Positions 3,227-58,340 of a stretch of DNA of 64,000 nt are shown piece after piece (the first letter of the stretch is position 1; each line of letters starts with the position of its first letter). Source of the stretch: a virus. Location of the stretch: the IMG/VR virus record IMGVR_UViG_3300044673_000327, positions 1 through 64,000 of that record, one strand, 5' to 3'. Made by a program: the position numbers and the translations under genes. Below the pieces are notes generated by a model, which ran no database searches, was not told where the DNA came from, and was given only the letters and a program-made list of their open reading frames with translations.

Positions 3227-3447
3227 GGGAAGATTTCGGGAAGACTAAACCGAGAAATCCCGAAACCCAATCCTAGAGAGGGATTCACCCCTCGTATAAC
3301 TACGCTAGGAATAGTTACTTAACCCCTCGCCGATTCTCCGAAACCCCCTCCAAAACCCTTTCCCTGTCCGCATCCCGTCCGAGCGTGTCCGCTTAAAAGG
3401 ACATAAAAGGATATAATACTCGGGAAGATTTCGGGAAAGATCGGGAA
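3227..3447. other. candidate attP (arm-type direct repeats plus inverted-repeat core)
   Basis: GGGAAGATTTCGGGAA at 3227 and 3422; TAACTA-N9-TAGTTA at 3297-3317; directly upstream of the integrase. Confidence 0.55.
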
Positions 3448-18864: not shown

Positions 18865-20112
18865 TTACCAAAGTTTACTAACCGCTTCCATCTTTTTCTT
18901 TTCTCCCCGACGTGAATAGCGAGCGGAGGTTTGGACATTGCTGTGTCCCATCAATTGAGCGATCGTTTCTATATCCACGTTCGCGTCGAATAGATCGGTA
19001 GCGAATGTCCTTCTCATATCGTGAGGTGAAAAATGATCTAATCCCGCTTCTTTACCCCTTGTCTTCAGGATGTGCAATATCGCTCCATCCGTCAGGGGTT
19101 TATCCAACAAACGACCACTCTTTGTAATAGGAACGAACAAATGTATATTCCCTACTGGTTTTTGATTACTGGCTCGATCACCTTGCTTTTGGTTGGAGCT
19201 ATTTTCGGGGCTGTCCTCATAATCTTTTACCTTTTCAGAAAGTAACAACCACTTTTCCACCAACTCGATCCCCCTCGGGGTGAGATAACAGGTTCGGTTC
19301 TTATTCCCCTTTCCCTTGACCACCCGTATCTCCCCCGTCTCCAGATCGATGTCCTCGATCTGGAGTTTGACGATCTCCGATCTCCTCAACCCCGATCGGG
19401 CTACCCCGATCAGCGCCGCGTCTCTCGCCCCCCGTACCGAACATGGATCTTTCAAACACACCTCTAGGAGATCGTCGATCTCGCTCCTGTTTAAAGCCCT
19501 ACCTTTTAGAGGGGTATTCCCCCGTACCGGCTTTAGGTCTATCGCGCGGGCGTAATCGGTTTGGTCGATCAACCCCATCCGCCAGCACTCCAACAAGACC
19601 CGTTTGAGCGCGACCAGTATTTTATTGACCGTCGCCGCCTCGTATTTCTCGGCCAATCTACCCCGCAACGCCACCGTATGCTGATACCGCAACCTGTGCC
19701 ACTCGAAAGCTTTTACCAACTCGATAGGCTCTGTAATCTCTACCCCGCGATTTCCTTTATCTCCACTTACTCCACTACCGATTACCACCTCCACCTCTTG
19801 AAGATCTATCTTCTCTTCATTCCTTCCTTCCTCTCTCTTGCCGTTCTGTCCGTCCTCGCCCACTACGCCTGTCAGCTTCGGGCGTTGATTCTCGCCTCTC
19901 CCTACCGTCCGTCGTCTCCTATCGACGCGGGGGATCGGGAATTCCCCGAACAGCGACAGATGGGCGAGGGTATGCAACGCCCCGAGCATCGTCGGTCTAC
20001 TGCCTTTCGATAACGACGAGAGGTAAGTCAGGGCGGGAGAGGGGATAGACTCTCCCCCCAACACGAGATCGGTAGATACGGGGCGAGTTATCGCGAGATC
20101 GTCGGGTATCAT
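18865..20112 (-). CDS. second tyrosine recombinase (XerC/D- or resolvase-like)
   Basis: RDAAL...GLRRSE, KG, HDMRRTF, MGHS...Y. Confidence 0.92.
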   Translation of the reverse strand: MIPDDLAITRPVSTDLVLGGESIPSPALTYLSSLSKGSRPTMLGALHTLAHLSLFGEFPIPRVDRRRRTVGRGENQRPKLTGVVGEDGQNGKREEGRNEEKIDLQEVEVVIGSGVSGDKGNRGVEITEPIELVKAFEWHRLRYQHTVALRGRLAEKYEAATVNKILVALKRVLLECWRMGLIDQTDYARAIDLKPVRGNTPLKGRALNRSEIDDLLEVCLKDPCSVRGARDAALIGVARSGLRRSEIVKLQIEDIDLETGEIRVVKGKGNKNRTCYLTPRGIELVEKWLLLSEKVKDYEDSPENSSNQKQGDRASNQKPVGNIHLFVPITKSGRLLDKPLTDGAILHILKTRGKEAGLDHFSPHDMRRTFATDLFDANVDIETIAQLMGHSNVQTSARYSRRGEKKKMEAVSKLW

Positions 20113-42349: not shown

Positions 42350-43297
42350 TTACCCGTCTTTATTAGTATTCCTGTGTTTGCCCGTGGCGATTAAACCGAC
42401 CGTCGCTCTAGACACCCCGTAAAGTTTGGCGATCGCCCCCTGTGTCATCGCTCGGGCTTCCCATATCTTGCGAATTTCTTCTACCTGTTCGTCTGTCAAC
42501 TTGCACCGAGGATTGTTCTCTCCCGCTAGTAACCCCTTTCGGACTTGTTTGTTTCGTTCGATAACTTTATCCGGGCGGGAAACTCCTTTCGCTCGAAGAA
42601 TTCTTTCTACAGTTCCGATCGATAATCCCACCACATCGGCTATTTCTCTACTAAAACAGCCATCTTGCCGCATCGAGATTATTGTTTCAGCGATCGCTTC
42701 ATTAGTTCTAACACCTGTATTGAAATGCTCTTTAACTTTCTTGTTCAGGATTCGCTCGAAATAGTCACGGCTATTATCCTGATGGGTTCCGATTTCGAGG
42801 TGGTCGGGATTAATGCAAAGTTTATTGTCGCATTTGTGACGTATTAGCTTTTCTTTAGGAACTGGTTCTTTAAAAACCTCGTAGCTTAATCTATGGGCTT
42901 GCCATATCTTGCCGTGATAACCGATGCTTCCATATCCCGCGCTGGTAACTCCACCAATCCAATTCCAACAATCGGTTTCACGATCGATTACTCGTTTCTG
43001 TTTTAGTCGAACTTGAATAGATTCTCCTCGGTGACGTGGGCGATCACCTAAAACTAAATGCTCTGGGTTAACACAATGATTATTTTTACAGGTATGGTTG
43101 ACGATCTTTCCCTCGGGAATAGATTCAAGTTCGTTATAAATGCAATACGAGAGACGATGAGCCATTACCGTTTTTCTGTTGATATGCGTCGTTCCAAACC
43201 CATCCCAATTGATAGCGGCTATCCAAAGCCAGCATCCATCGGGATCGGAACGCTTGTCGATCTTGGAATGAAACCGATCTACAATTTCCTGTTTCAT
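42350..43297 (-). CDS. free-standing double-HNH homing endonuclease
   Basis: Two CWxW...AHRLSY...HxCxN..CxNPxHL units plus a C-terminal KLT...HTH. Confidence 0.92.
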   Translation of the reverse strand: MKQEIVDRFHSKIDKRSDPDGCWLWIAAINWDGFGTTHINRKTVMAHRLSYCIYNELESIPEGKIVNHTCKNNHCVNPEHLVLGDRPRHRGESIQVRLKQKRVIDRETDCWNWIGGVTSAGYGSIGYHGKIWQAHRLSYEVFKEPVPKEKLIRHKCDNKLCINPDHLEIGTHQDNSRDYFERILNKKVKEHFNTGVRTNEAIAETIISMRQDGCFSREIADVVGLSIGTVERILRAKGVSRPDKVIERNKQVRKGLLAGENNPRCKLTDEQVEEIRKIWEARAMTQGAIAKLYGVSRATVGLIATGKHRNTNKDG

Positions 43298-43439: not shown

Positions 43440-44639
43440 CTAGTTTTGGAAAGAGCGTACAATTGTACAAAAACGTTCGTCAATTAGCTCGAACGACCCG
43501 AAGATCTGCCAAATGCAGATAATGAACCGTTGGAAGTCATCGTTGGAGTTCATGAGGATACGCGGGCCATCTCCACCGATACCGACCCCGATACACTGCG
43601 GGCCGAAAACGATCCCGAGTTCGGCGGTACGAGCGGCGGAACCACCGGTCACACCCGCGGGTTGGTTGGAGTAGTTCACCGTGACGGTAGCTTTAGGCAT
43701 ATTGGTCGTGGTGAAGTAGCGGATACCGTTGAACACGAAACCGGAGGGCATCGTTTGAGCGCCGAGCATATCGATCATCTGACCACCGGCGAGACCCGCG
43801 AACCAAGTCGAGCTAGACTGACCGACGGGCATACCACCACCACCGATCTGCGGGATAGACATCGGTTCGGCTCCGACTCCCATACTGGAGACGGGGATAT
43901 TACCGGGGTAGCGGGTGATCTCGCGGAAGTCTTTATCGGCGCGGAGATCTTGCAGGAAACGGGGGGAGCAGAGACACCAGTAGTTACCGTCCTCGAAACG
44001 GGGTACTAACCGTTCGGACATACGGGTGTTCACCTCTTCCATGAAGTTGACGGTGATCTTGGGAACCTTCGATCCGTAGACGGTGCTAGAACCGATGTCC
44101 ACGGTCGCGCCATCGGCGAAACCACCGGGGTTGTAGACGAAGGTGGATTTCAACATCTCGTTGATGTAAACCCGATCTTCCCAACGACGGTAATCGTCGA
44201 GGAGATTAGCCGAACCGATCGAATCGTGGAAAGCCTGAGCGCCGTAATCCCAATATTTCCGTTGCGCCGTCATCAATTGTTGGATAGGGATCTGGAACGT
44301 CGCGGGGGTGTTCGGGCTATCGATCGCCGACGGTCCGGTGTACTCCCGGAGGGTCATGATCACCTTGTCTTTGTCGAACCCGCGGGCGTTACCCACACCG
44401 ATCGTTTGGGTCTGACTACGTTCGCGAGCCGTTTTGGTTAGACTCTGCTCGCGGTTGGCGGAACTGAGTTCTTTATCCGCCCAGAACGCGGGACGATCGA
44501 GTTGCACCGAATCACCCGGGCCTTTGGTGTGGTCGTACATGACGCGGGGACGGGTGATCAGTTTAGAGATATAGGTCGGGACGGGGCGGAATAATTCAGC
44601 GCCGAGAATTAACGGAACATCATTATCGATAAAGCTCAC
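43440..44639 (-). CDS. major capsid protein
   Basis: 399 aa; follows portal and scaffold; biased codon usage; AGGAG RBS. Confidence 0.8.
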   Translation of the reverse strand: MSFIDNDVPLILGAELFRPVPTYISKLITRPRVMYDHTKGPGDSVQLDRPAFWADKELSSANREQSLTKTARERSQTQTIGVGNARGFDKDKVIMTLREYTGPSAIDSPNTPATFQIPIQQLMTAQRKYWDYGAQAFHDSIGSANLLDDYRRWEDRVYINEMLKSTFVYNPGGFADGATVDIGSSTVYGSKVPKITVNFMEEVNTRMSERLVPRFEDGNYWCLCSPRFLQDLRADKDFREITRYPGNIPVSSMGVGAEPMSIPQIGGGGMPVGQSSSTWFAGLAGGQMIDMLGAQTMPSGFVFNGIRYFTTTNMPKATVTVNYSNQPAGVTGGSAARTAELGIVFGPQCIGVGIGGDGPRILMNSNDDFQRFIICIWQIFGSFELIDERFCTIVRSFQN

Positions 44640-45140: not shown

Positions 45141-46622
45141 CTATCGGATCATCGCCCCTTTAGCGGTTCCGATCTTGCCCGCGCTCTCTAGGGCGGTGAG
45201 GGCGAGGTATCGTTTCGAGGGATCGATCGCCGATATGCCACCTCGGGGAACCGCGTTCGTCCCGTAGGGAGCGGCTTGACCCGAGGGTAATTCGGGACGG
45301 GTGACGTTGATAGAGTTCGTCGGGAGTTCGTTGCCGATACCCTCGGGGAAAACGGTACGGGGATCGATACCCTTGCGGGCGAGATGTTTGGCGTAGCTCG
45401 CCTTATCCGCGGGCGATAGGGCTTTCGGATCGATGCCGACGATCGAATTATTCGGGTTCGGGGGAGTGGCGGGAGGTAACGCCGCTCTCTCGGGTTGACC
45501 GCCCATCGGGATCGCTTGTTGCTGTCCCCGAACGGGTTGTTGCCCCCTCCGTTGCATCTCGATACCGTACTGCCGCTCGATGAGGGCTTTCTGTACCTCG
45601 GGTTGTTGTAATCGGGGGTCGTTAGGATCGATACCGTTCTCGGAGATCGCCGCGCCTAAAAGAGCGCCCATGAGTTGTTGTTGCTTCTCCACCTGAACGA
45701 GGTTAGCGAAATACTCGTTGAGTTGTTTCGGATCGGTGAGAAGATCTTGCATCTTATCGTGACGTTTCTCTAGTTGTTCGTACCGCTCGACGTGGAGAAC
45801 GAGATCCTTGAGGAATTCCTGATGCGAGATAAAGTATTTCACGTACTCGACGATCGCCGCCGCCTGACGTTGATTGAGATCTTCGAGCTTGGCGTGGGAC
45901 TCGTTGAGAAGTTCGGCGATCTGGGCGATCGGGAGGTTGAACGCTTTCTCCAGTTCGATCGCCGAAGCGAAACCCTCCGAGGAGATTTTACTTACGGGTT
46001 GACTTTGACTTTGACTTTGATTTAGGTTTTGAGCCTGTTCTTGAATTCCGTTGCTGTTTAAACTGGGTGTAGGTTGGGAAAAGCTGGGTTGCTGTTGTCG
46101 CGGATAGGTCGGGTGGTACTGGTGCGAGGGAGTCACGTAATCCGGGGCTAAACCGTTGGAGTTCGGGTAAGCTACCGGAACCGTCCCCGGTTGTCGATTG
46201 ACCAACATCTGAGCCTGGTACGGGTAATCCGGCGAGGTATTCTGGGCGGATCGAATTCCCTCCTGCATAAACCCCTGCACCTCCCGATAGCCCATCGGAC
46301 GGAGATCCCGCGCCTGTCCCCAAGGTTCCGAGTATTGTGGCGTTGGGATATATTCCTGTTGCCTGTAATGGGGTGTAATTGTAGGCGGGGTTGATACCGG
46401 GGTTTGTAGATACCCCGTATTTTGTACCGGTGAGGTATTCGAGTATTGCGGGATCTGATAGGTTTGTTGCGGCTGGTACGGAACCATTTGCGCCGTTTGC
46501 ACCGGTTGTAGGTTCAGCGTCTGGACTTGCTGAGGATAGTCCGGCGATATAGTCATCGTAGGCGCTGGAGCCGGTTGGGAAGGGGTTATCGGTTGGAGTT
46601 GCGGGTTCGATAGGTCTGACAT
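45141..46622 (-). CDS. scaffold-like protein (Gln/Pro-rich plus coiled coil)
   Basis: Lies between portal and capsid genes; start uncertain. Confidence 0.65.
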   Translation of the reverse strand: MSDLSNPQLQPITPSQPAPAPTMTISPDYPQQVQTLNLQPVQTAQMVPYQPQQTYQIPQYSNTSPVQNTGYLQTPVSTPPTITPHYRQQEYIPTPQYSEPWGQARDLRPMGYREVQGFMQEGIRSAQNTSPDYPYQAQMLVNRQPGTVPVAYPNSNGLAPDYVTPSHQYHPTYPRQQQPSFSQPTPSLNSNGIQEQAQNLNQSQSQSQPVSKISSEGFASAIELEKAFNLPIAQIAELLNESHAKLEDLNQRQAAAIVEYVKYFISHQEFLKDLVLHVERYEQLEKRHDKMQDLLTDPKQLNEYFANLVQVEKQQQLMGALLGAAISENGIDPNDPRLQQPEVQKALIERQYGIEMQRRGQQPVRGQQQAIPMGGQPERAALPPATPPNPNNSIVGIDPKALSPADKASYAKHLARKGIDPRTVFPEGIGNELPTNSINVTRPELPSGQAAPYGTNAVPRGGISAIDPSKRYLALTALESAGKIGTAKGAMIR

Positions 46623-48258
46623 AGCCGAGTTCGTTAAATATAGTTTCTAGGGAACGCTGGATCATCGGAACCACCGGCAGACTCGCCGATAGCGGTAAAC
46701 CGGGGTTAGCCTGATCGGGAAGTTGGAGAAGGTTTTGGTAGATCCCGAGCAATTGTTGTGTCGTACCCGCGACCGCGTTGAGATAGCGGAACGGATACCC
46801 ACCACTTAACATTCCTATCTTTTCCTTCTCCGTCTTCTCGGGGAAAAGGAAAGTCAGGGCATCGAGCGATCGCACACCCAACTCCTGAAGGTTACGGGTA
46901 ACGATAGATTTCTTCTGGAGATCGTCGGGACTATCCTCGAATACAGAACCTTTCCATCGCCACTCGATCGTTCTCTTACCGAGGGGGGGCAAGCCGAAAA
47001 CACCCTCGGGTAGGGGAGTACCCGCTTGCATCATGGCGTTAAACTCCTCGACCGATACGGGTTCGGTATTCGGATCTCTACCGAGGGCGATCGTCAGACT
47101 TCTCAGGAATAGATCTTCCTCGATCGCTAGAATCTTCTCTAAAACCTTACAGATACCGTGGGTGTAGATAGCGACGGCTTTTTTCTTCGCGGTCGTGGCG
47201 ACCTTACCGTACACCGTCTTCATCTCGTAAGCGGTAGCGGACGCGTGAATCCCCCGCTCGTCGATACCCCCGAGGGCGAAGTGGATAGCCTCCCGCTCCT
47301 GTTGGACGTGATTGAACTGATCGGGACTCACGGGATCGGGGGTGATAAAAGCGAATCGCTCATCCGCCCCGACGTTACCGATCACCTGCTTGAGTCGGAA
47401 TCCCTTCGAGGTCATTCCCCCGCGTCTGGGATCGCCCTTACGGGTGGAGAACGAGTTATTGCCGTACCATCCCGAGTTAGCGGCGACGGTATTGGCGCGG
47501 TTGAGATTGCGGGAACCCCATCCCCCCGCTTCCTGTAGTTCGGAGGGAGATCGGGTACTGACTAAAATGGGATGACCGAAGAAGGCGAGGTTCTCCTGAA
47601 TCGCCACGACATCGGCGTTGTGCGCCTCGATCTGGGAGCGGAACGGCTCGAAGTCCCCCGTACCCGGTTGACCCTTCCCTTTCGAGTTATTCTTGATCAC
47701 CACCACGGGGATAAACCCGAGGGAGTTCTTGAAGGTCTGTCTATTGGGTGTCTGGATCTCGGAATCGAACGAGGGTCGGGATTCGTACTCCTCCTGATAG
47801 ACGAGATCTTTGGTGAGGATTAATTTAATCCACGATTCTTTCTTCCAGTTATCGGTTTTGCCTACCTTGTTAAAAGGGTAGATCACGATCGCCCGCTCTA
47901 TTTCCCCATCGCGATCGTAGTAAACGCGATACTGTCCCCTCTCGTAGAAATAGATGTCGTAGGTGGCTTTCTTATTAGGACGAAAGTAGACGAGTTGTTC
48001 GCCCTTACAGATATGGATCTGCCAGATCCGTTCCATCTGTAAATCGAGTTGATTGTGCTTTACGATGTCCTCGATAAAACCCTTACGAGTCCCCCGATCG
48101 TCATCTTGAGTGGGGTAATATTCTACCCCGGCTCTCAATCCGAACATGGTCATTTGAGAGACGTGGTTCTGCACCACCATCGTCCGCGCCTCTTCCTCGT
48201 TCGGGAAAGACTCGGGGTAGAGGTAACTATTAACGAGATCGTCTAGGGTCGCTGACAT
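45988..48258 (-). CDS. portal protein
   Basis: Size and synteny; NSLGFIPVVVIKN motif; low-complexity C-terminal tail. Confidence 0.8.
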   Translation of the reverse strand: MSATLDDLVNSYLYPESFPNEEEARTMVVQNHVSQMTMFGLRAGVEYYPTQDDDRGTRKGFIEDIVKHNQLDLQMERIWQIHICKGEQLVYFRPNKKATYDIYFYERGQYRVYYDRDGEIERAIVIYPFNKVGKTDNWKKESWIKLILTKDLVYQEEYESRPSFDSEIQTPNRQTFKNSLGFIPVVVIKNNSKGKGQPGTGDFEPFRSQIEAHNADVVAIQENLAFFGHPILVSTRSPSELQEAGGWGSRNLNRANTVAANSGWYGNNSFSTRKGDPRRGGMTSKGFRLKQVIGNVGADERFAFITPDPVSPDQFNHVQQEREAIHFALGGIDERGIHASATAYEMKTVYGKVATTAKKKAVAIYTHGICKVLEKILAIEEDLFLRSLTIALGRDPNTEPVSVEEFNAMMQAGTPLPEGVFGLPPLGKRTIEWRWKGSVFEDSPDDLQKKSIVTRNLQELGVRSLDALTFLFPEKTEKEKIGMLSGGYPFRYLNAVAGTTQQLLGIYQNLLQLPDQANPGLPLSASLPVVPMIQRSLETIFNELGYVRPIEPATPTDNPFPTGSSAYDDYIAGLSSASPDAEPTTGANGANGSVPAATNLSDPAILEYLTGTKYGVSTNPGINPAYNYTPLQATGIYPNATILGTLGTGAGSPSDGLSGGAGVYAGGNSIRPEYLAGLPVPGSDVGQSTTGDGSGSLPELQRFSPGLRDSLAPVPPDLSATTATQLFPTYTQFKQQRNSRTGSKPKSKSKSKSTRK

Positions 48259-50096: not shown

Positions 50097-50406
50097 CTTT
50101 TTTAGGTAAGCCCTTCGGGTTATTCGAGGATGTAATCATTCAGGAAATTTTATGACCACTTATGAATACCCGAGAGGGTATCAGATCACCCATCACGATA
50201 ACGGTCAACGATCGATCTCGGTCGTTGACGAGAATGGAAACACGCTATTAGACGCGAGCCTTCCCGCTCGCGACGAATTCGATCGAGAGTTCACCCGAGA
50301 CTTCATTCTTTTCTTTTCGGGGATGGTAAGTCCTGAAATATTCGACTTTCACTTCCCCTTTTAATTTATTCCCCTCTTCGGAGGGGATTTCTTTTTGTCA
50401 CGGGCT
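50097..50406 (+). mobile_element. cassette 1 (motif A ... hairpin-T-tract-CACGGGCT)
   Basis: CTTTTTTAGGTAAGCCCTTCGGG-N11-TGTAAT; CACGGGCT at 50399. Confidence 0.75.
50152..50364 (+). CDS. cassette 1 cargo, hypothetical protein
   Basis: AGGA RBS. Confidence 0.7.
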   Translation: MTTYEYPRGYQITHHDNGQRSISVVDENGNTLLDASLPARDEFDREFTRDFILFFSGMVSPEIFDFHFPF

Positions 50407-50468
50407 GAGGGATGGGTGAGTATCGATCGCCTTCCTTTCATAGCGATCGCCTATCGGTGGGAGACCAC

Positions 50469-51210
50469 GACTCTTTTTAGGTAAGCCCTTCGGGGAGATG
50501 GTCGGTGAATATTCAGCCTTTAAGGAGGCACTTCTATCATGACTACCGTAACCAGCACCACCGTTTCCGCTTCCGTTGCCGTTTCCGTAGCTCAGTCGTA
50601 TCCGTATATGACTTTCTACGCGAACGGGAAACGCGCGCGCGTGCAGTTATTCATCGGGTTCGATTGTGGACGTGAACGCGCGGAAGCGATCGTGAACTCG
50701 ATCGTTGCCAAGTATCCCACCGCTTCTTTAGCGAAGTGGGAGGACGGTAGCAAGGTCTTCACCGAACGCTACTGGTGCAATACCCAGAAGCGTCTCGTGC
50801 GTAGCGATCGCAAGGGATTCGTCTTGAATATCCCGATGGGCGACATGGTTGTTCCCTCGGAATCCAAGCCCGGTTTCCGCAAGCTCGACGTGTTGCGCGC
50901 TTGGGTTAATGCGACCCAGAAGCCCCGCCTTGTCGGGCAACTGGAAGCGAATCTCGCCACGTCAGCGTCGGGTTCGGGCGCGGAAGTGGACGTGACCGCG
51001 GGAACTCAACCCCCCGCGAGCGATCGCCGTTCCGAGTTAGAGGCTATGGCATGGTCTGACCTTCTGAAACTCGCCCAATCGCTCAATAAGCCTAAGTCTC
51101 TCAAGAAGAAAGCTGAACTCGTAGCCTTCATCCTAGAGAACGAATTCTAATCTCTTTCCTCTCTTCTCCTTCCTCCTCTTCCGGGGGAAGGTTTCTTTTT
51201 GCCACGGGCT
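50469..51210 (+). mobile_element. cassette 2
   Basis: Motif A at 50473; CACGGGCT at 51203. Confidence 0.75.
50539..51150 (+). CDS. cassette 2 cargo with C-terminal Rho_N/HeH-like domain
   Basis: AAGGAGG RBS; SELEAMAWSDLLKLAQSL...KKAELVAFILE. Confidence 0.75.
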   Translation: MTTVTSTTVSASVAVSVAQSYPYMTFYANGKRARVQLFIGFDCGRERAEAIVNSIVAKYPTASLAKWEDGSKVFTERYWCNTQKRLVRSDRKGFVLNIPMGDMVVPSESKPGFRKLDVLRAWVNATQKPRLVGQLEANLATSASGSGAEVDVTAGTQPPASDRRSELEAMAWSDLLKLAQSLNKPKSLKKKAELVAFILENEF

Positions 51211-51256
51211 GAGAGTACGGGAAGGGAATATGCCGCGTCCTCCCGTCACGAACCAT

Positions 51257-51558
51257 GACTCTTTTTAGGTAAGCCCTTCGGGTTATTCGAGGGTGTAACT
51301 TACCACTAAGGTACTTCTATCATGACTACCAAATCTGTTCGTCGCATCATCTTAACCGCTCATGTCGTTGGTTATAAACCAGTGACCACCACGGCTAAGA
51401 ACGATAAAGAAGTTCAACTCAGAATCGTACAATCCCTCGAACATTTCTCGAAACTCGGTGTTCAATCCGATAAAGTAGAAATTCAACGCGCTTATCTATA
51501 ATCCATCTCCCTATCCTTCCCTCATCTCGGGGGAAGGATTTCTTTTTTACCACGGGCT
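51257..51558 (+). mobile_element. cassette 3
   Basis: Motif A at 51261; CACGGGCT at 51551. Confidence 0.75.
51322..51501 (+). CDS. cassette 3 cargo, 59 aa (not in the ORF track)
   Basis: MTTKSVRRIILTAHVVGYKP...; start context identical to cassette 2. Confidence 0.7.
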   Translation: MTTKSVRRIILTAHVVGYKPVTTTAKNDKEVQLRIVQSLEHFSKLGVQSDKVEIQRAYL

Positions 51559-51645
51559 TTCGTTTTATTCCTATTACTAACACCTCATCCCTGTAGTATG
51601 TCGCGTTAGAATATAAGGGTAGTATTTGTATTCCTTGAAAGATAC

Positions 51646-52221
51646 ATGGACGTTACGATTAAGCTGATTACTAGCGTTTCTCAACGGGACAGTTTACAGG
51701 CGATCGCCGATCGCTACCGAGCCGCGAGGGAATGGTTGGACGAGACGGCAGATCCGAGGCTTATCAGTTACTCGGGGATCTACCAACTCTATTACGGGGA
51801 GTTACGGGAACGTTTCGGATTAGGAGCGCACCAATCCCAACAGGTCTGTCAGGAGGTTTCGATCGCGAGGGGGGTGGCTCGAAAGAACGATGGGGTCGTA
51901 ACTTTCGAGCGGGATTCGTTCACCCTACATAGCGGGGGTTTTAGCGTCTTCGTGGGGAAGTCGTCCAAACAGAACCTATCCCTCAGTATAACCGGGCTAT
52001 CGGGGCGGGAGTATTACGCCCTCAAGTCGGGAGTCCGTTACTACAGTGTCTTCGTCAAGAAGGGAACGATCGCCAAGAAAGCGCGGGTGTTCCTCGGCGA
52101 TGACGGTATCTGGCGAGTGACCGTGACCCTCGCCGATCGTCCCGCGGGGAAAGAGCCGAATCACAAGGAGGCGATCCGAACCTTTAACGCGGATTGCGTG
52201 AGTCGGAAGATCGGGATCTAG
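51646..52221 (+). CDS. TnpB-like N-terminal half lacking RuvC
   Basis: TIKL...YRAAREW...YYGELRERFGLGAHQSQQV...GIWRVTVTL; no GxDxG follows. Confidence 0.6.
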   Translation: MDVTIKLITSVSQRDSLQAIADRYRAAREWLDETADPRLISYSGIYQLYYGELRERFGLGAHQSQQVCQEVSIARGVARKNDGVVTFERDSFTLHSGGFSVFVGKSSKQNLSLSITGLSGREYYALKSGVRYYSVFVKKGTIAKKARVFLGDDGIWRVTVTLADRPAGKEPNHKEAIRTFNADCVSRKIGI

Positions 52222-52360
52222 TACATCGGGGGTGGAAAGTTTTTCTTCACCCCCGTTCTCGATCGCGCGACGACCTTTCCTAACCGCGCGACAGGCTGTT
52301 GAAATAGTTAGAATCACCAAAATTTTTTTCTCATGCAGAGCGGGGTTTCCACGAAATCGC

Positions 52361-52522
52361 TAGATATATTATTAGATATTTTTTAAATTCTTCTTTCTTC
52401 TCCCGAACACCTGTACTGTACGAGGAACTTAGTACGATCGGGGGAGGGGAAAGGGAGAGGAGAGGAAGGAATGAGTTTTTATTTTCTTTTTCAGTCGTGG
52501 GATGGATAGACCCCCGAGTGTT
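52361..52522 (+). repeat. diverged non-coding copy of the rep-gene origin-like segment (9975-10130)
   Basis: Shared TTATTAGATA, TTCTTTCTTCTCCCGAACA, GAGTTTTT and CCCCCGAGTGTT in the same order. Confidence 0.7.
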
Positions 52523-52882
52523 AGCGAGGGGATGGGGGTGATGGAGAGATGGTAGACGGGAGCGAACGCTATCCCCCTCCCGCGGGACGGAGAGACTAGG
52601 GCGAGGTTTAAATCCCCTCTAGTAGGCTTCGGGATAGTCGGCTATCTCTTTACCCCACTCGTGGGATTCAAGACCTTTAAGCGAGGTTTATAACCCACTA
52701 GAGAGGGCTAAGGACTAGGATTATCCTCTCGTGTTAACCCAAGTCTTTTCGAGGGGAAGAGATCGCCCGCCCCGTGTAGTATGTTTGTAGTTCACTTATC
52801 AAGAGCGTTGACGTTCCCCGATCGCCCCGTTATTAAACATCGCAACTATGCTACGTCCTCTATAGTTGCTGTTAGAATTAAA

Positions 52883-52910
52883 GGATAGCTACGCTATATA
52901 GGGTATGAGT
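52883..52910 (+). promoter_or_regulatory. motif B (copy 7)
   Basis: GGATAGCTACGCT-N10-TGAGT. Confidence 0.7.
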
Positions 52911-53016
52911 TAATTCGTTGGGGTAATTAACTCTATCTTCTTCTTTCATAGAGCTTTCGGTATTAGTAGATCGTTCTAGGAAGGGAAAGATATTTCCGAA
53001 CTTGTCGTCTACCCCC

Positions 53017-53647
53017 GACTCTTTTTTAGGTAAGCCCTTCGGGGTAATAGTAATTGTAATCAACTCAACTTGAGGTTTAATTCTATGCGTAGCATGAACG
53101 TCCATATCATCTCGGGCAACATCGGCGGATATATCACCAAAGTTCGCAACGAACAAGGTGAACTCGAACGTAAGTTCTTCGACCGTCCAGTGATGAGCAA
53201 GACTTCTTCTGGCAAGAAGCTTATCATCCTGACCGTCGCCGTGACCGTCGGTGTCAAGAAAGGTGACGAGTGGACGAACGAAACCCTCTGGAAGGAATTC
53301 CGCTTCTGGGATAACGATGCCTCTTTCCTCGCGGAGTATTCCGCTCAGGGAAATTTCATCGAGATCCAGTACGAGGAAATCCCGAACGTTTGGATGGACG
53401 AGAACGGCAAGAAACGCTACGGCGATCCCGATCTCCGCGTCGTCCGGTTCGTTCTTCCTAAGATGAATCGTTCTGCCAAACCCTCGAACGGTGACGATGA
53501 CTTCGAGGCGATGACCGTCCCGACCGAGGCTCCCGAACTAACTGCCGAAGAGTTAGCCGACATCCCCATGTAATCCCGATTTCAATCTCCTAATCCGGCT
53601 CCCTAGTCCTCTTCGGAAGACTAGGGATTTTCTTCTTTCCACGGGCT
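53017..53647 (+). mobile_element. cassette 4
   Basis: Motif A at 53021; CACGGGCT at 53640. Confidence 0.75.
53085..53573 (+). CDS. ssb: single-stranded DNA-binding protein
   Basis: VHIISGNIG, LTVAV, ETLW...FW, GNFIEI OB-fold pattern; acidic tail ending DIPM. Confidence 0.8.
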   Translation: MRSMNVHIISGNIGGYITKVRNEQGELERKFFDRPVMSKTSSGKKLIILTVAVTVGVKKGDEWTNETLWKEFRFWDNDASFLAEYSAQGNFIEIQYEEIPNVWMDENGKKRYGDPDLRVVRFVLPKMNRSAKPSNGDDDFEAMTVPTEAPELTAEELADIPM

Positions 53648-53675
53648 TTCCCCCAACTCTCAACAGGTTATCCCC

Positions 53676-53942
53676 ATGAGCTACGAATACCAGTACGACA
53701 CCGATCGCTATCCCGTTCCCGCCTATCCCGAGAACGAACACCTGGACGAACCGACCCTCACTCCCTACGACAAGGGGCTATTCGACGGAGTGACCTATAA
53801 CCTTTCCGAGGAATTGATCCGGCACATCGACGATGCCGATTACGTTCGGGGATACCTCGATGGAGTGCGGGAGGCGATCGCTTCCAAGAGATACCTTCTC
53901 TCCCTACAGGGGAAGGTTAAACCCCATCCCGATAGCTTCTGA
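53676..53942 (+). CDS. hypothetical protein
   Basis: YDKGLFDG / YVRGYLDG repeat. Confidence 0.6.
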   Translation: MSYEYQYDTDRYPVPAYPENEHLDEPTLTPYDKGLFDGVTYNLSEELIRHIDDADYVRGYLDGVREAIASKRYLLSLQGKVKPHPDSF

Positions 53943-54100
53943 ACGCGGTACGCTACGCTCGAACTACAATTCGGGGAAGTAGGATTGACCCGGTTCTCTC
54001 CGTTCCCCGTCAATCCCCCGCGTACCCTCTAGAATATTTTCGGGGTAGCCTTTTCCATCCCCCCGAATATCTCTTTTCCCTACACGCGCGGGTATTATAT

Positions 54101-54421
54101 CTCTATTAGGTTAGCCCTTCGGGGCGTTCGGCAGTTGTAATTCCACTTGAGGTTTATTATGCGATTAATAACGATTGTCGGTGATGCGGTTCCCCGTGGC
54201 GGGACATATCACGCGGTAGCCGTGTACGAAACTTCTGCGGGTCGTCGTACCAAGACCGTAACTATTCCGGGATTTACCGGAACCTATCGAGGGTTTTGGG
54301 ATCGACAACCTTTCGATGAAGTATTGAACATCGACGAAGTTCCTAGTTGGCTATTGAAATAATTCTTTTATCTCTTTCCTTCTCTCATCTCGGGGGAAGG
54401 ATTTCTTTTTTGTCGCGGGCT
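54101..54421 (+). mobile_element. cassette 5
   Basis: ATTAGGTTAGCCCTTCGGG-N12-TGTAAT; CGCGGGCT abuts the TerL stop codon. Confidence 0.7.
54159..54362 (+). CDS. cassette 5 cargo, hypothetical protein
   Basis: GAGG RBS. Confidence 0.7.
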   Translation: MRLITIVGDAVPRGGTYHAVAVYETSAGRRTKTVTIPGFTGTYRGFWDRQPFDEVLNIDEVPSWLLK

Positions 54422-56031
54422 TAATTCCTCGCGTGGAATTCCTCCATCGCAGTCTCCAGTCTCCGACGTACACCCAATCCCTTGAAGGCGAGGGCGAGGG
54501 AATCCACACAATCGTTATAGGCAACGGAACCGAATTGGGTTAGCTCGTTAATCCACGGACTCCAATCGATATACCGATTGAAGTAGACTAACCCGTTGTG
54601 GAATAGACCCGTCATGCCGAGAAGATGACTCAGCTTATCGCCCCCGAGTTTGATGCCGTACACCTGCATCGAGTACAGTCCCTTCTCGTTGTGGATGTAT
54701 TGAGTGAAGTCCATGACAAGGGATGCCTGATACGCCACGTCCTCGATGTAAACACGCCACGGGGTAACGCCATCGTCCCATTCCTCGTATAGTTCCAATA
54801 TCACCTCGCACTTATCGAGGTTGGATACCCACTTCCCGCGTCTACCATCGAGAACGTAGAAATGATCGCCTCTTTTCCCGAGTAGGGTGATGACGGTATA
54901 ACAGGCTTTTTCTTTCTCCGATACGGCGAGATCGATACCGATAGCGAAGGAATCGAACGCGGTTCCGAGGGGGATGTCTTTGTAGAGAATCCACGAGGGA
55001 TCGATGCTCATCCCCTCGACTCGAACGACAACGTTCTGGTACTGGAACGAGAAGCCGAAGGGGTCTTCCCTCTGGAGTGTCTTGAGCTTTTCTGTCGGCC
55101 ACCAATCGGGCCAGTAGGAAACGAGATTCCCCGAACCGTCATCGATAAGCGCCGATTGCTCGATAACCTTCCAGCCCTTTTCGGTCGTAAAGTCGGTGCA
55201 GTATATGTCATCGGGACGCATCCGAGTCCCTACACAGATCATCCGACCCCCATCGAGTAGGGTCGGTTTGATAACCGAATGGAACTTGGTTTGAATCTTC
55301 TCTCTCGTCTTGAGACTGGCGATGTCATCGGGAGATTTGATGATGTCGTCGAAGATAATAAGATGAGTACGCTTACCGACAATGGAACCGGTGATACCCG
55401 TCGCGAGCATCGTGTAATCCTCGCCCCCCGTGTTATCGATTCCCGCCCACTTGCGATCGATCGTCCAGTAAGTATCGCTCCATTTATTCCCCTTGCGAAT
55501 ACAGGGAAAGACTTTCCGGTATTCTTCCCCGGTGAGGGTGTCTTTGATGATACCGCTTCTAGCTAGAGCGATCGCTTGAGAGGCGGAAGCGTAAAGAATC
55601 TGTAAGGCGATACCTTCGAGGGCGTGAGTACCGATCGCCCATGCCACGAACATATCGATGCGGGTACTCTTCGCCGAACCGCGAGGGCTGAGGATCAGGA
55701 TATTATCCCCAGCTATCCCTCGAAGGTGTCGGCTATCGTTGCCCGTGACGAGGTGTTCGTCCCATCTCTTGTGATGCTCCGCCCCCGCGAGAGATTTATC
55801 GGGGGGTAGATTACGGGTGACATACCAACAGAAGTAATCGAAGTCTTTCCTCGCCCGAAGAATCTCCTCGTCGTCGGTATGCCATCGATTCTCTTTTGCG
55901 ATCGCCCCCTGCCGTTCTAGTTCTCTCTCCTCGGCGCGGGCGATCTCTATATCCACGAGAGCGCGACGGTATCGGTTCTTCTTGCCCGTACCGCTCGACC
56001 TGTTCCCCCTCGTTCCCGTCCTCGATGCCAC
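54421..56031 (-). CDS. terL: terminase large subunit
   Basis: PRGSAKST (Walker A), LIIFDD (Walker B), GTR, GIDLA, DCVDS nuclease motifs. Confidence 0.93.
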   Translation of the reverse strand: MASRTGTRGNRSSGTGKKNRYRRALVDIEIARAEERELERQGAIAKENRWHTDDEEILRARKDFDYFCWYVTRNLPPDKSLAGAEHHKRWDEHLVTGNDSRHLRGIAGDNILILSPRGSAKSTRIDMFVAWAIGTHALEGIALQILYASASQAIALARSGIIKDTLTGEEYRKVFPCIRKGNKWSDTYWTIDRKWAGIDNTGGEDYTMLATGITGSIVGKRTHLIIFDDIIKSPDDIASLKTREKIQTKFHSVIKPTLLDGGRMICVGTRMRPDDIYCTDFTTEKGWKVIEQSALIDDGSGNLVSYWPDWWPTEKLKTLQREDPFGFSFQYQNVVVRVEGMSIDPSWILYKDIPLGTAFDSFAIGIDLAVSEKEKACYTVITLLGKRGDHFYVLDGRRGKWVSNLDKCEVILELYEEWDDGVTPWRVYIEDVAYQASLVMDFTQYIHNEKGLYSMQVYGIKLGGDKLSHLLGMTGLFHNGLVYFNRYIDWSPWINELTQFGSVAYNDCVDSLALAFKGLGVRRRLETAMEEFHARN

Positions 56032-56396
56032 TAAAGATCGCCCCCGTCTCTACACGGGTCTTATCTTTCCTACATCGGGGGACTCGGGGTACAATCTAAC
56101 GAATTCAGGTTTCATGATAGAAGGCTCGGGTGTTCCATCTCTTCAGCGCGAGCGAAGCGCTGGCGTAGCCAGTTCGCCCCACCTTTTTCCTATTCCGATC
56201 GCGTACAATGAAGAAGTACACCGAGACGGTCGGTAAATTGTACTAGGTTCGGAGAGGGGGCGATCGTGGATCACCCCCTCTCTTTATGGTTGGATTATTT
56301 GTTTTTAGAATCACCATTCTGCACACCGAATAATATTCCTGATAGTAATCCTTTTGAATCGGGAAAGACGATCGCTAATCCCTTCTTTCGAGTATC

Positions 56397-56858
56397 GAGT
56401 CTTTTTTTAGGTTAGCCCTTCGGGTTGATCTGTAATGTAAACCACCCCACTCTCTTCACGGGGTATTTTCAACCAAAGGATTAATCGATCATGAATACTT
56501 TCCATCACATCATTGACCTCTGCATTATTCTCTCCGCTTTATCTTTAACCCTTCTCTCCTTTCTTCCTCTCCTCTTTAAAGGGATTATCTGCCTCCAGAA
56601 GTTCCCGAGCAAAGTCCGTCAATGCCGAGCCGACAAACGACAAGCTCTCTACCGTCAAGCTGTTGCTCGTGAGTTCGATGCGTTGATGAAACATCCCTAT
56701 CACGATCTCAAGAAGTACGTTCGACATCTCGCCCTACCGACCGACGATATGAAGAAGCCTACGATAGCGTGGGCGATCGCTAACTATCACGTTCAGAGTT
56801 ACGGTCTCTAGTCTCTTCCCCCCCTCCCATCGGAGGGGATTGTCTTTTCCCACGGGCT
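56397..56858 (+). mobile_element. cassette 6
   Basis: Motif A at 56401; CACGGGCT at 56851. Confidence 0.75.
56491..56811 (+). CDS. cassette 6 cargo, TM helix plus HeH-like C-terminus
   Basis: Hydrophobic N-terminus; LMKHPYHDLKKYVRHL...KKPTIAWAI. Confidence 0.7.
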   Translation: MNTFHHIIDLCIILSALSLTLLSFLPLLFKGIICLQKFPSKVRQCRADKRQALYRQAVAREFDALMKHPYHDLKKYVRHLALPTDDMKKPTIAWAIANYHVQSYGL

Positions 56859-56948
56859 TTCGATAGAATCCCCGGTTAGTCTCGCACTAACATCTCGACC
56901 TTTGACGGACTGCTTTAACTTTAAGCTACGGGGAGCGTGACTATTCTA

Positions 56949-57542
56949 TCACCCTTCCTTCGCCTCGATCAAGATCGTCTCGATCGCTTTCTCTAAAGCC
57001 TCCTCGAAAGAACTCCCCTTGAAGATCTCCCGTAACCCATCCGCCATGCGCATCATCCCCGCTTTCTCGAACTCCTCTTTCTCTTGAAGATTGCCGATGC
57101 GGATGAAGGTATCGATCGCCTTGACCGCGCTGTTACGGAGGTGCGGGAGAACCTGTAGGAACTTCTCGTCGGGGATGGAATCCTGCCCGGCTTTCACTCT
57201 CATGGTCGCCATGTCCAGATCCTCTACCGTATCCACGATCAACTTCTGTATCGTGCCGATAGGATCGAATCCCCGATAGTCCGCTAACTTCTCGTTGAGG
57301 GCTAAAGCTCTGGCTCCCGCGGTCTTATATCTCTCGTACCAATTACTCACCCCGTCGATCGATACCTTGAACTCGGGACTGAGATCGAGAAGGTATCTCT
57401 GGATGTCCGATAGTCGCGGGTTAGGACGGTTGGCGATCGCCAGTAATCCCGCGTCCTGATCGGGAGTTAGCATCTCGCGGAACCTATCGATCTTTGTCGG
57501 GGGAGATTTACGGGGTTTGAGTATCGGTTTAGCGTCAGCCAT
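56949..57542 (-). CDS. terminase small subunit-like protein (Mu gp27/DUF3486-like)
   Basis: TKIDR...VSIDGVSNWY HTH-like segment; upstream of terL. Confidence 0.6.
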   Translation of the reverse strand: MADAKPILKPRKSPPTKIDRFREMLTPDQDAGLLAIANRPNPRLSDIQRYLLDLSPEFKVSIDGVSNWYERYKTAGARALALNEKLADYRGFDPIGTIQKLIVDTVEDLDMATMRVKAGQDSIPDEKFLQVLPHLRNSAVKAIDTFIRIGNLQEKEEFEKAGMMRMADGLREIFKGSSFEEALEKAIETILIEAKEG

Positions 57543-57613
57543 AATAGAGGAGAGGAAGGAATGAATGAATGAATTAATTTATTTTTCCGTTCTTAATCGG
57601 GGTAATTAAGACG

Positions 57614-57850
57614 GGGGATTAGTATTCCTTTCTTTCTAGGTTTCGTTATAAGCCGAGGTGACAGATGGTATATAAAATCGTTTGGCAAAGCAAGATAACC
57701 GGCTATCGATCGGAGGGAAGTCCGAGTGATAATTTGACAGAGCTTGAGGTGTTGACAAATAGAATGAATAAAGAATATCCAGATATAGATCACTGGATAC
57801 TCCCCGTCGATGAGTCAAATCAAAAAGGGGATTAGTATTCCTTTCTTTCT
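57614..57850. repeat. identical 24-bp direct repeats containing motif C
   Basis: GGGGATTAGTATTCCTTTCTTTCT at 57614 and 57827. Confidence 0.9.
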
Positions 57851-57923
57851 CTCTCTCCGTATCGAATCCTTTTTAGGTTAGCCCTTCGGGTTATAAGTAG
57901 GTGTAGTTAATCGAGATTGAATT

Positions 57924-58106
57924 ATGTATATCGCTTTTCAATGCGCCGGTGAAGAACTCTACTGGAAGTCGGGTGGTAAGCGCGAGCCATTGGTTCTGAC
58001 TCTTGAAAAAGAGAAAGCCACTCGAATTACGTTGGGTGTGTTTCCTAAAAACTGGTGGTATCGAATGAATGACAAAGTTCAAGATCTGGATTTTCAGATC
58101 GTTTAA
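57924..58106 (+). CDS. cassette 7 cargo 1
   Basis: First ATG after motif A. Confidence 0.65.
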   Translation: MYIAFQCAGEELYWKSGGKREPLVLTLEKEKATRITLGVFPKNWWYRMNDKVQDLDFQIV

Positions 58107-58118
58107 TTGGAGGAGTTT

Positions 58119-58268
58119 ATGTATATCAGAATCAAAGACTATCTTCCCGATGCGAACATCTCTCCCGAAGTTCAAGTACGGGTCGATGATAACTTCAACC
58201 CGAAAGATAAATACACTCTAGACTGGCTAGAGTATTTGGTCTTACTCTGGAACTCAAGAGAAAAATAA
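58119..58268 (+). CDS. cassette 7 cargo 2, 49 aa (not in the ORF track)
   Basis: GGAGGAG RBS; MYIRIKDYLPDANISPEVQ... Confidence 0.65.
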   Translation: MYIRIKDYLPDANISPEVQVRVDDNFNPKDKYTLDWLEYLVLLWNSREK

Positions 58269-58340
58269 TTAATTCATTCCTCTCCTTCCTCTCCTTCCTC
58301 TCTTATCGAGGGGAAGGATTCTTTTTTCCACGGGCTTTAT

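Follow-up and report, generated by a model that had tools for sequence, protein, structure and literature searches.

Morons of lambdoid and other phages, the subject of work by Hendrix, Juhala and colleagues, are reportedly promoter-gene-terminator units that lie between the genes of late operons and are transcribed on their own; the classical ones are said to carry host promoters and mutually unrelated control regions, and to be expressed typically from the prophage. For the PeSL (promoter and stem-loop) elements of T4-like phages, mini-circles were demonstrated by the polymerase chain reaction (PCR) (PMC2839356, PMC4122927). As to dedicated phage enzymes, the two-barrel RNA polymerases (RNAPs) of the Thermus phage P23-45 use conserved promoter motifs, and a unique motif of 26 nucleotides (nt) is common to seven terminators used by its virion RNAP; these promoters and terminators were mapped by Oxford Nanopore cappable sequencing (ONT-cappable-seq) together with chromatin immunoprecipitation sequencing (ChIP-seq) (PMC10770324). 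In phage N4, the loop of the promoter hairpin is stabilized by a sheared G:A pair (PMC4496689). The promoter of YonO, a polymerase with noted homologues in cyanobacteria, was left undefined in 2017, and the primer pair given in the supplement for its mapped start brackets about 200 nt upstream of yonK (PMC5467207); our literature search found no YonO-type promoter defined since then. Here we analyze a 64,000-nt stretch (the window), the first 64 kb of the 85,288-bp linear IMG/VR virus record IMGVR_UViG_3300044673_000327 (CheckV completeness 62%), in whose cyanophage-like genome seven short gene units with common ends lie among the packaging and head genes. We consider it fairly likely, judging from the sequence, that these are autonomous transcription units, each built of a phage mini-hairpin promoter, its cargo and a terminator followed by a conserved octamer, which have no recombination sites of their own and whose modules are exchanged.

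The original prediction, made from the letters alone, had placed the seven units at 50097-50406, 50469-51210, 51257-51558, 53017-53647, 54101-54421, 56397-56858 and 57864-58336. The 18-mer TTAGGTWAGCCCTTCGGG on which it was founded does occur exactly seven times in the window, at these places and always on the plus strand, against a chance expectation of 0.19. The predicted layout of both ends was likewise found in all seven units: a T-tract, the 18-mer, 11-12 variable bases and a TGTAAT-like box on the left (the class-A box), and on the right a G+C-rich hairpin of variable sequence, a T-rich tract of 11-13 nt and the octamer C(A/G)CGGGCT. The left box contains a mini-hairpin of the form AGCCC-TTC-GGGTT or CCC-TTCG-GGG, so that the template strand reads C(GAA)G. 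One or two short open reading frames (ORFs) make up the cargo of each window unit, and the single-strand DNA-binding protein (SSB), already named in the prediction, is the sole one with an identified family; the two proposed HeH-like proteins fared less well, with only a weak Rho_N/SAP-like C-terminus in unit 2 and nothing detected in unit 6. The proposed antisense position within the packaging module holds for units 6 and 7, single inserts amid the minus-strand genes (terL, a 197-aa gene and a 246-aa gene), but not for units 1-5, which form a plus-strand island of their own (50.1-54.4 kb), with the portal side on one flank and terL on the other. This island includes two further plus-strand ORFs (51646-52221 and 53676-53942); in units 1-2-3 the terminator is separated from the next box by just 47-63 nt, and at the far end unit 5 abuts the terL stop, as had been noticed.

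The 7:7 pairing of left and right ends, correct within the window, breaks down in the whole record, which holds 10 left boxes, all on the plus strand (those beyond the window at 69580, a variant, 69713 and 71618), and eight right ends, the eighth at 75120. The pairing is thus a tendency and not a rule. Nine of the 10 left boxes stand 35-75 nt 5′ of a plus-strand ATG, with a Shine-Dalgarno-like stretch in between. The box at 69713 precedes a 557-aa gene (genome 69751-71424, L011:5751-7424) that has no right box and whose product contains DUF7831 (7e-21) and a weakly DprA/SLOG-like C-terminal half. The box at 71618 heads a 3.5-kb operon of three genes (92, 875 and 105 aa) which closes at the eighth right box. 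The variant copy (TTGGGTTAGCCCTTCGGGG, genome 69561-69595, L011:5561-5595) sits inside a longer hairpin, ACCCCG..CGGGGT, with a T-tract after it; it lacks a TG box and resembles a terminator constructed around a copy of the box. We also observed TTTTTAGGTT, the first half of the left box, just 5′ of the last terminator hairpin (genome 75066-75075, L011:11066-11075), which may be a matter of chance or a box remnant.

The hairpin and T-tract at the right end constitute, by sequence, an ordinary intrinsic terminator. The composite of hairpin, T-tract and octamer is, as predicted, absent elsewhere in the window, but the bare octamer occurs there five more times (5226, 10779 on the minus strand, 15484, 37137 and 61908 on the minus strand), each time lacking hairpin and T-tract. 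When terminators are compared, the octamer follows all eight of those that close class-A units and none of about seven other convincing ones in the genome (7416 and 82379 on the plus strand; 4747, 37265, 45089, 44972 and 9302 on the minus strand). Moreover, the octamer is unchanged among units whose terminator stems have drifted apart with compensating changes. This constancy, along with the confinement to class-A terminators, argues for selection on the sequence of the octamer, which thus looks selected.

A candidate for the enzyme reading these signals is encoded inside the longest class-A unit (genome 71618-75120). The 875-aa ORF located there (genome 72058-74685) is, as judged from its DxDGD loop and its modelled fold, a two-barrel single-chain RNAP of the YonO/QDE-1 type. 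The sequence DYDGD at residues 473-477 corresponds to the DxDGD metal-binding loop of the second barrel; D473, D475 and D477 are invariant in an alignment of 40 homologues, and G476 is invariant or nearly so. An exhaustive search yielded a family of 138 cluster representatives, and the family profile, when compared with the PDB sequences, matched cellular and plant RNA-dependent RNA polymerases (7w82 at 6e-6, RDR2 at 1e-4), the alignment bringing together the GDChGK..QFR..KG and GGDFDGD blocks. The AlphaFold (AF2) model, with a predicted local distance difference test (pLDDT) score of 90 and a predicted template-modelling (pTM) score of 0.88, was matched by Foldseek to QDE-1 (2j7n, 5.4e-16), RDR2 (7w82, 7.9e-16), gp62 and gp64 of the Thermus phages P74 and P32, respectively (1e-9 to 1e-10; 8f5m 6e-10, 8f72 4e-9), the virion RNAP of the crAss-like phage phi14:2 (6vr4, 5e-6) and also P23-45 gp96. 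A tblastn search with the protein against 50,697 GenBank phage records gave no match at E <= 1e-3. No T7-like polymerase of the PF00940 type was present among the large ORFs scanned in this incomplete record, and the two-barrel enzyme is the sole phage polymerase found in it. A likeness of class A to SP6 promoters (the common TTTAGGT) was dropped for want of a T7-like polymerase, and the 1521-aa ORF that follows the polymerase operon was rejected as a second polymerase, with an hhalign probability of 1% and no Pfam, PHROG or PDB match.

The comparison with related phages, which the original prediction had suggested as a check, revealed the exact motifs in none of them but the same design in one clade. 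A blastn search of the region against GenBank phages gave no match, and scans for the exact motifs returned two single matches in IMG/VR and 19 in the metagenome collection, all in unrelated contexts, several of them ribosomal RNA- or coding-like, and none with a second copy. The TerL relatives examined (80 viral and 25 genome loci) carried neither class-A, -B or -C motifs (see below for B and C) nor the composite right end; in one of them, L015, three octamers occur, all in coding sequence. The nearest viral relative by TerL (G004, contig L141; 43.5 kb, 47% identical) encodes a homologous polymerase followed by a giant ORF, in the same arrangement as here, and through it the polymerase relatives in viral contigs were reached. 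G004 has 20 copies, 19 of them on the plus strand, of the motif nnGGC-TAAC-GCCnn, N8, (G)TGA, most located 20-40 nt 5′ of ATGs, that of the polymerase gene included; the copies at 3434 and 8730 lie inside or antisense to minus-strand genes. The two outer stem pairs of this motif covary (AU, GC, UA, CG), with 93% of the cells paired and 19 double changes as compared to 5.8 in shuffles, none of 500 shuffles reaching as high. Five additional records, with polymerases 50-80% identical to the G004 enzyme, have kept the motif.

In class A and class B of this phage and in the G004 clade alike, a mini-hairpin is followed after a spacer of some 9 nt by a TG box, and the template-strand loops (GAA in class A, GTA in class B, GTTA in G004) are all of the G..A type and closed by C:G. 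Upstream of the class-A hairpin the only conserved sequence is the T-tract. With the hairpin as the outermost conserved element on the upstream side, with genes that require a promoter, and with pairing rather than base identity kept in the relatives, the boxes would be promoters of a hairpin type rather than a sigma type. Two further features of the relatives deserve mention. Ahead of the polymerase gene (L141:14606-14775 in G004, and about 9263-9900 in L167 and L169) the box is immediately followed by a strong hairpin and T-tract before the ATG, which may be an attenuator of the polymerase's own synthesis. In three relatives a hairpin box is found within, and antisense to, an 832-aa structural gene (L141:8730 in G004, L167:3916, L169:4469); either an antisense promoter or a coincidence within the coding sequence may explain it.

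Two more motif classes were found by k-mer counting. Class B, GGATAGCTACGCTA (TAGC-TAC-GCTA) followed after about 9 nt by TGAGT, has eight copies, on the plus strand only, and is probably a second class of hairpin-type promoter, as its sequence suggests; its template loop is C(GTA)G against C(GAA)G in class A, both with stems of just 3-5 bp. The ssb gene is preceded by class B and class A in tandem. Class C, AGGAATACTA(AT), has 10 exact copies and a number of one-mismatch variants, nearly all on the minus strand, 25-45 nt 5′ of structural genes including the major head gene, with one ahead of the 1521-aa ORF. The class-C pair between unit 6 and terL is likely a restart signal for minus-strand (late) transcription, and class C is a candidate late promoter, by our guess one for the phage sigma factor described below. 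Twice, class C directly follows a hairpin plus T-tract. Three gene-proximal, strand-specific motif classes are the pattern of a temporal transcription programme, with each class as a putative temporal promoter class.

We propose that the left box would act as a phage-specific promoter consisting of the T-tract, the mini-hairpin and, about 9-11 nt further on, the TG box (TGTAAT), transcription probably starting at or just past the TG box, which would leave leaders of 15-30 nt holding the ribosome-binding sites. Its most likely reader would be the phage's own 875-aa two-barrel polymerase; the odds that this enzyme reads class A, and probably also class B, we put at about even. At the right end, the octamer lies 11-13 nt past the stem of the intrinsic terminator, in the downstream duplex at the presumed release point, where it would probably strengthen or specify termination for the 875-aa polymerase, and read-through into the convergent or antisense late genes would thereby be prevented. 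The GGGCT of the octamer corresponds to the 3′ arm of the promoter hairpin on the template strand, placed at the stop on the non-template strand, so that the promoter-binding surface of the polymerase might re-engage there and pause. That a polymerase of the YonO/QDE-1 type would have its complete start signal in the class-A box (a G..A mini-hairpin of the template strand with a TG initiator) and its complete stop signal in the hairpin/T-tract/CACGGGCT element, the stop including a sequence-specific element ahead of the enzyme, we advance only tentatively, as a possibility that more probably fails than holds. The original prediction offered three options, and the one favoured here, transcription units of a phage polymerase with a C(GNA)G mini-hairpin in the template strand, agrees with the two-barrel polymerase, the position of its gene behind a box and the covarying motif of the relatives.

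Several points weigh against this proposal. The polymerase gene stands behind its own candidate promoter, so the first transcript would have to come from another enzyme or a packaged copy. The nearest-neighbour DNA energies of the class-A and class-B hairpins are -1 to -3 kcal/mol, not better than those of shuffles, and the class-A stem is invariant among its copies, so that the case for a hairpin depends on the relative clade. In cyanobacterial chromosomes, ten loci encoding polymerase homologues yielded no hairpin core present at least four times. An octamer-like stop box was not seen at the terminators of the relatives (G004), which makes the role of the octamer a conjecture. Promoter activity, the start site, the identity of the box-reading polymerase and the action of the octamer are what we infer from the DNA itself. 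Finally, all six phage-group records checked, this one included, encode a sigma factor, and co-occurrence therefore cannot separate the polymerase from the sigma factor as the reader of the boxes.

Class-A boxes might accordingly be read by the host core RNAP with a phage SigF-like sigma factor, for which AGGTAAG or TGTAAT would take the part of the -10/-12 element, the remaining sequence forming an extended upstream element, a possibility that we rate as rather unlikely. The 252-aa sigma factor of this phage (genome 66252-67010, L011:2252-3010, minus strand; Sigma70_r2 3e-12) has cyanobacterial SigF as its best NCBIfam match (6e-17); AGGTAAG coincides with the -12 region GGGTAAG of the SigF-dependent Synechocystis pilA1 in six of seven positions (PMC2532724), and the class-B GGGTGAGTT equals GGGTAAGTT in eight of nine. 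However, a TAGGC-like -32 element is absent at the right spacing, six of the 10 class-A copies have AGGTTAG instead of AGGTAAG, and an invariant block of 16-21 nt, joined by a covarying hairpin in the relatives, is not the mode in which sigma factors read DNA. Pfam detects region 2 only in the phage protein, and a region-2-only sigma would rather go with a promoter of a single block, as in class C, which lies ahead of late genes; the sigma gene itself heads the late minus-strand block in both clades (this phage and G004). Ordinary sigma-70 promoters, which the original prediction had named among the findings that would undo it, find no support either: a sigma-70 consensus scan picked up none of the seven class-A boxes of the window, the second base of TGTAAT is not A, and a TTGACA-like hexamer is missing 16-18 nt upstream.

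Another of the predicted options, that of mobile integron-like cassettes whose inverted AGCCC...GGGCT ends are moved by a site-specific recombinase, appears highly improbable to us. It would agree with common ends around unrelated ORFan cargo, with a tyrosine recombinase encoded at 18865-20112, and with units 6 and 7 as single inserts between conserved late genes, the region of unit 7 (about 800 bp) being a 52-bp gap in G004, where homology of the flanking gene is weak (E 5e-4). But the inverted identity of the ends amounts to 5 bp only, the pairing fails at 10:8, no target duplications or other repeats are visible at the unit flanks, one box heads the polymerase operon and another a 557-aa gene without a right box, and the sole integrase found lies 30 kb off and resembles an ordinary phage integrase. 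Integron cassettes are promoterless ORFs with attC, next to intI, attI and Pc; a promoter-like box in every unit is the opposite, and transcription signals explain both ends. As for the last option, widened here to any role of the ends in RNA, we give it hardly any credence. The 5′ UUCG-type hairpin and the 3′ terminator hairpin would here stabilize the mRNA, or AGCCC/GGGCU would close the transcript. In bacteria 5′ stem-loops do protect mRNAs, and CCC-UUCG-GGG, in the six copies with GGGG, would be a very stable RNA tetraloop hairpin. Such an RNA would be left with no promoter, however, since only the T-tract is conserved upstream of the hairpin; UAC and UAAC, the loops of class B and G004, do not belong to the special loops of RNA, whereas the template-strand forms are all G..A; the octamer is past the T-tract, where the transcripts should have ended; and both halves of the 5-bp pairing, the only one available, are probably outside the transcript.

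While dedicated ends thus find no support, the other form of the mobility idea, an extension of the PeSL elements, has fared better. Parts are shared between units in a mosaic manner: the spacer by units 1 and 3; the leader (5′ untranslated region) plus the first three codons (18 nt) by units 2 and 3; 12 nt of the leader by units 4 and 5; and 28 nt of the terminator by units 3 and 5. At the junction of terL and the 197-aa gene, G004 has a hairpin box alone in an 88-bp gap where this phage has a box, a 106-aa ORF and a terminator; the flanking 197-aa proteins of the two phages are homologous (E 3e-9). The mosaic sharing and this syntenic promoter-only site suggest gain, loss and reshuffling in the manner of PeSLs and morons, and the units have probably spread and been reshuffled, to judge by the sequences shared, through homologous recombination between common regulatory modules, as those elements do. 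Metagenome contigs aligned over 44-64 kb revealed no joints or variants; contigs end at the repeated boxes, for instance the piece 50100-51291.

The coordinates of the features are collected in Table 1. The DNA of the record, which is rich in GCGATCGC, occurs in three rhizosphere-metagenome runs, all of them of DNA and none of RNA; the host is probably a cyanobacterium of soil or rhizosphere, likewise rich in GCGATCGC. Adjoining the major head gene is a minus-strand ORF for an HNH homing endonuclease (42350-43297; HNH_3 2e-16, with helix-turn-helix domains). Rfam and ARAGORN, applied to the window and to the 21 kb beyond it, gave no match anywhere in the record, the noncoding stretches at 52560-52720 and at genome 75128-75339 (L011:11128-11339) included, in which several T-arm-like hairpins (GGTTCGATTCC-like) were noticed; the latter stretch is directly 3′ of the last CACGGGCT.

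Table 1. Units, candidate signals and neighbouring genes (window positions unless marked as genome)
Feature	Position	Strand	Description
Unit 1 class-A box	50098..50136	+	T-tract, AGGTAAGCCCTTCGGG (mini-hairpin), N11, TGTAAT
Unit 1 cargo	50152..50364	+	70-aa ORF, no family
Unit 1 terminator	50370..50406	+	hairpin 50370-50387, T-tract, octamer CACGGGCT 50399-50406
Unit 2 class-A box	50474..50511	+	TG box TGAATA
Unit 2 cargo	50539..51150	+	203-aa ORF; weak Rho_N/SAP-like C-terminus only (Rho_N E 0.26)
Unit 2 terminator	51168..51210	+	hairpin, T-tract, CACGGGCT
Unit 3 class-A box	51262..51299	+	TGTAAC
Unit 3 cargo	51322..51501	+	59-aa ORF
Unit 3 terminator	51513..51558	+	hairpin, T-tract, CACGGGCT
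Class-B box ahead of ssb	52883..52915	+	GGATAGCTACGCTA-N9-TGAGT; 130 nt 5′ of unit 4 box, no ORF between
Unit 4 class-A box	53022..53060	+	TGTAAT
Unit 4 cargo, SSB	53085..53573	+	162 aa; PF00436 1.7e-7, phrog_44 6e-8
Unit 4 terminator	53601..53647	+	hairpin 53601-53626, T-rich tract, CACGGGCT
Unit 5 class-A box	54101..54141	+	AGGTTA variant, N12, TGTAAT
Unit 5 cargo	54159..54362	+	67-aa ORF
Unit 5 terminator	54377..54421	+	hairpin, T-tract, CGCGGGCT; adjoins terL stop (54421)
Unit 6 class-A box	56402..56441	+	TGTAAA; between terL and 197-aa gene
Unit 6 cargo	56491..56811	+	106-aa ORF, hydrophobic N-terminus, no family
Unit 6 terminator	56821..56858	+	hairpin, T-tract, CACGGGCT
Unit 7 class-A box	57870..57907	+	TGTAGT
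Unit 7 cargo, two ORFs	57924..58268	+	60 aa (57924-58106), 49 aa (58119-58268)
Unit 7 terminator	58292..58336	+	hairpin, T-tract, CACGGGCT
Class-B copies	5518, 10378, 15148, 21220, 39681, 52886; genome 67499, 79932	+	30-50 nt ahead of plus-strand genes
Class-C exact copies	57842, 57629, 49311, 48868, 45040, 42373, 42205, 41315, 37233, 20997	-	
Class-C one-mismatch variants (examples)	56352, 49920, 44902, 39364; genome 66227, +75295		
Two overlapping one-mismatch class-C boxes	56331..56352	-	AGGATTACTA, AGGAATATTA; between unit 6 and terL
Two exact class-C boxes	57620..57842	-	AGGAATACTAAT at 57842 and 57629; directly past unit 7 left end, ahead of minus-strand genes
terL (terminase large subunit)	54421-56031	-	
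Portal	45988-48258	-	
Major head protein	43440-44639	-	

If the assignment to the two-barrel enzyme is true, polymerases of the YonO/QDE-1 type would here receive their first defined promoter-terminator pair, and the set found here (the 875-aa enzyme, 10 near-identical start boxes of about 40 nt each and eight stop elements of about 45 nt each) would amount to an orthogonal transcription system of small size. Hairpin-type promoters, known so far from the unrelated N4 enzyme, would then have arisen in a second lineage of polymerases, and a sequence-specific part of termination would be indicated. With such signals a phage could put strongly expressed small genes antisense among its genes for packaging and the head and leave these undisturbed. 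Should the assignment fail, the units would still provide a clean non-T4 example of regulatory modules of the moron or PeSL kind.

With P23-45 this phage shares a single-chain two-barrel RNAP, the structures 8f5m, 8f72 and 8h2m being among the fold matches of the 875-aa model, and strongly conserved phage-specific promoter motifs, here putative ones recognized from sequence. A motif common to a subset of terminators is a further likeness, here the octamer at eight of eight class-A terminators and at none of the other convincing ones. The P23-45 promoter motifs, in contrast, are AT-rich and GC-rich and are not termed hairpins in the main text (PMC10770324), the stop motif here is an 8-mer that follows a classical hairpin and T-tract, and the polymerases are only about 13% identical in structural alignment. 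YonO of the Bacillus prophage SPbeta is likewise a single-chain DNA-dependent RNAP of about 100 kDa with two barrels and the DxDGD loop, features predicted for the enzyme described here; unlike the candidate signals of this phage, which precede genes of early or middle type and the polymerase gene, YonO serves to make one long late operon (PMC5467207). The early promoters of N4 resemble the class-A box in having a small template-strand hairpin with a 3-nt loop of the G..A type and C:G closure, just 5′ of the start (in this phage a candidate hairpin and a presumed start), and in keeping few conserved bases while the stem varies freely, as is seen here in the G004 clade (PMC4496689). N4 uses SSB as a cofactor, and in this phage the ssb gene is located in one of the units. 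The N4 polymerase, however, is a T7-like right-handed enzyme that is injected, whereas the candidate here is two-barrel and nothing indicates its packaging; N4 has three promoters with stems of 5-7 bp centred at -11, against 10 copies with stems of 3-5 bp, a TG box about 9 nt downstream and an upstream T-tract in this phage.

As to the modular organization, the units resemble PeSLs, repeated promoter and stem-loop modules that flank ORFans and are points of homologous exchange, some with a stem-loop inside the promoter (PMC2839356, PMC4122927). They differ in that PeSL promoters fit the sigma-70 consensus, which class A does not, and in that no conserved box follows the PeSL terminator. Units 6 and 7, which by sequence are promoter-gene-terminator units between late-operon genes, fit well among the morons. 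What this locus adds to the known systems is the matched conserved stop element and the clean self-contained units.

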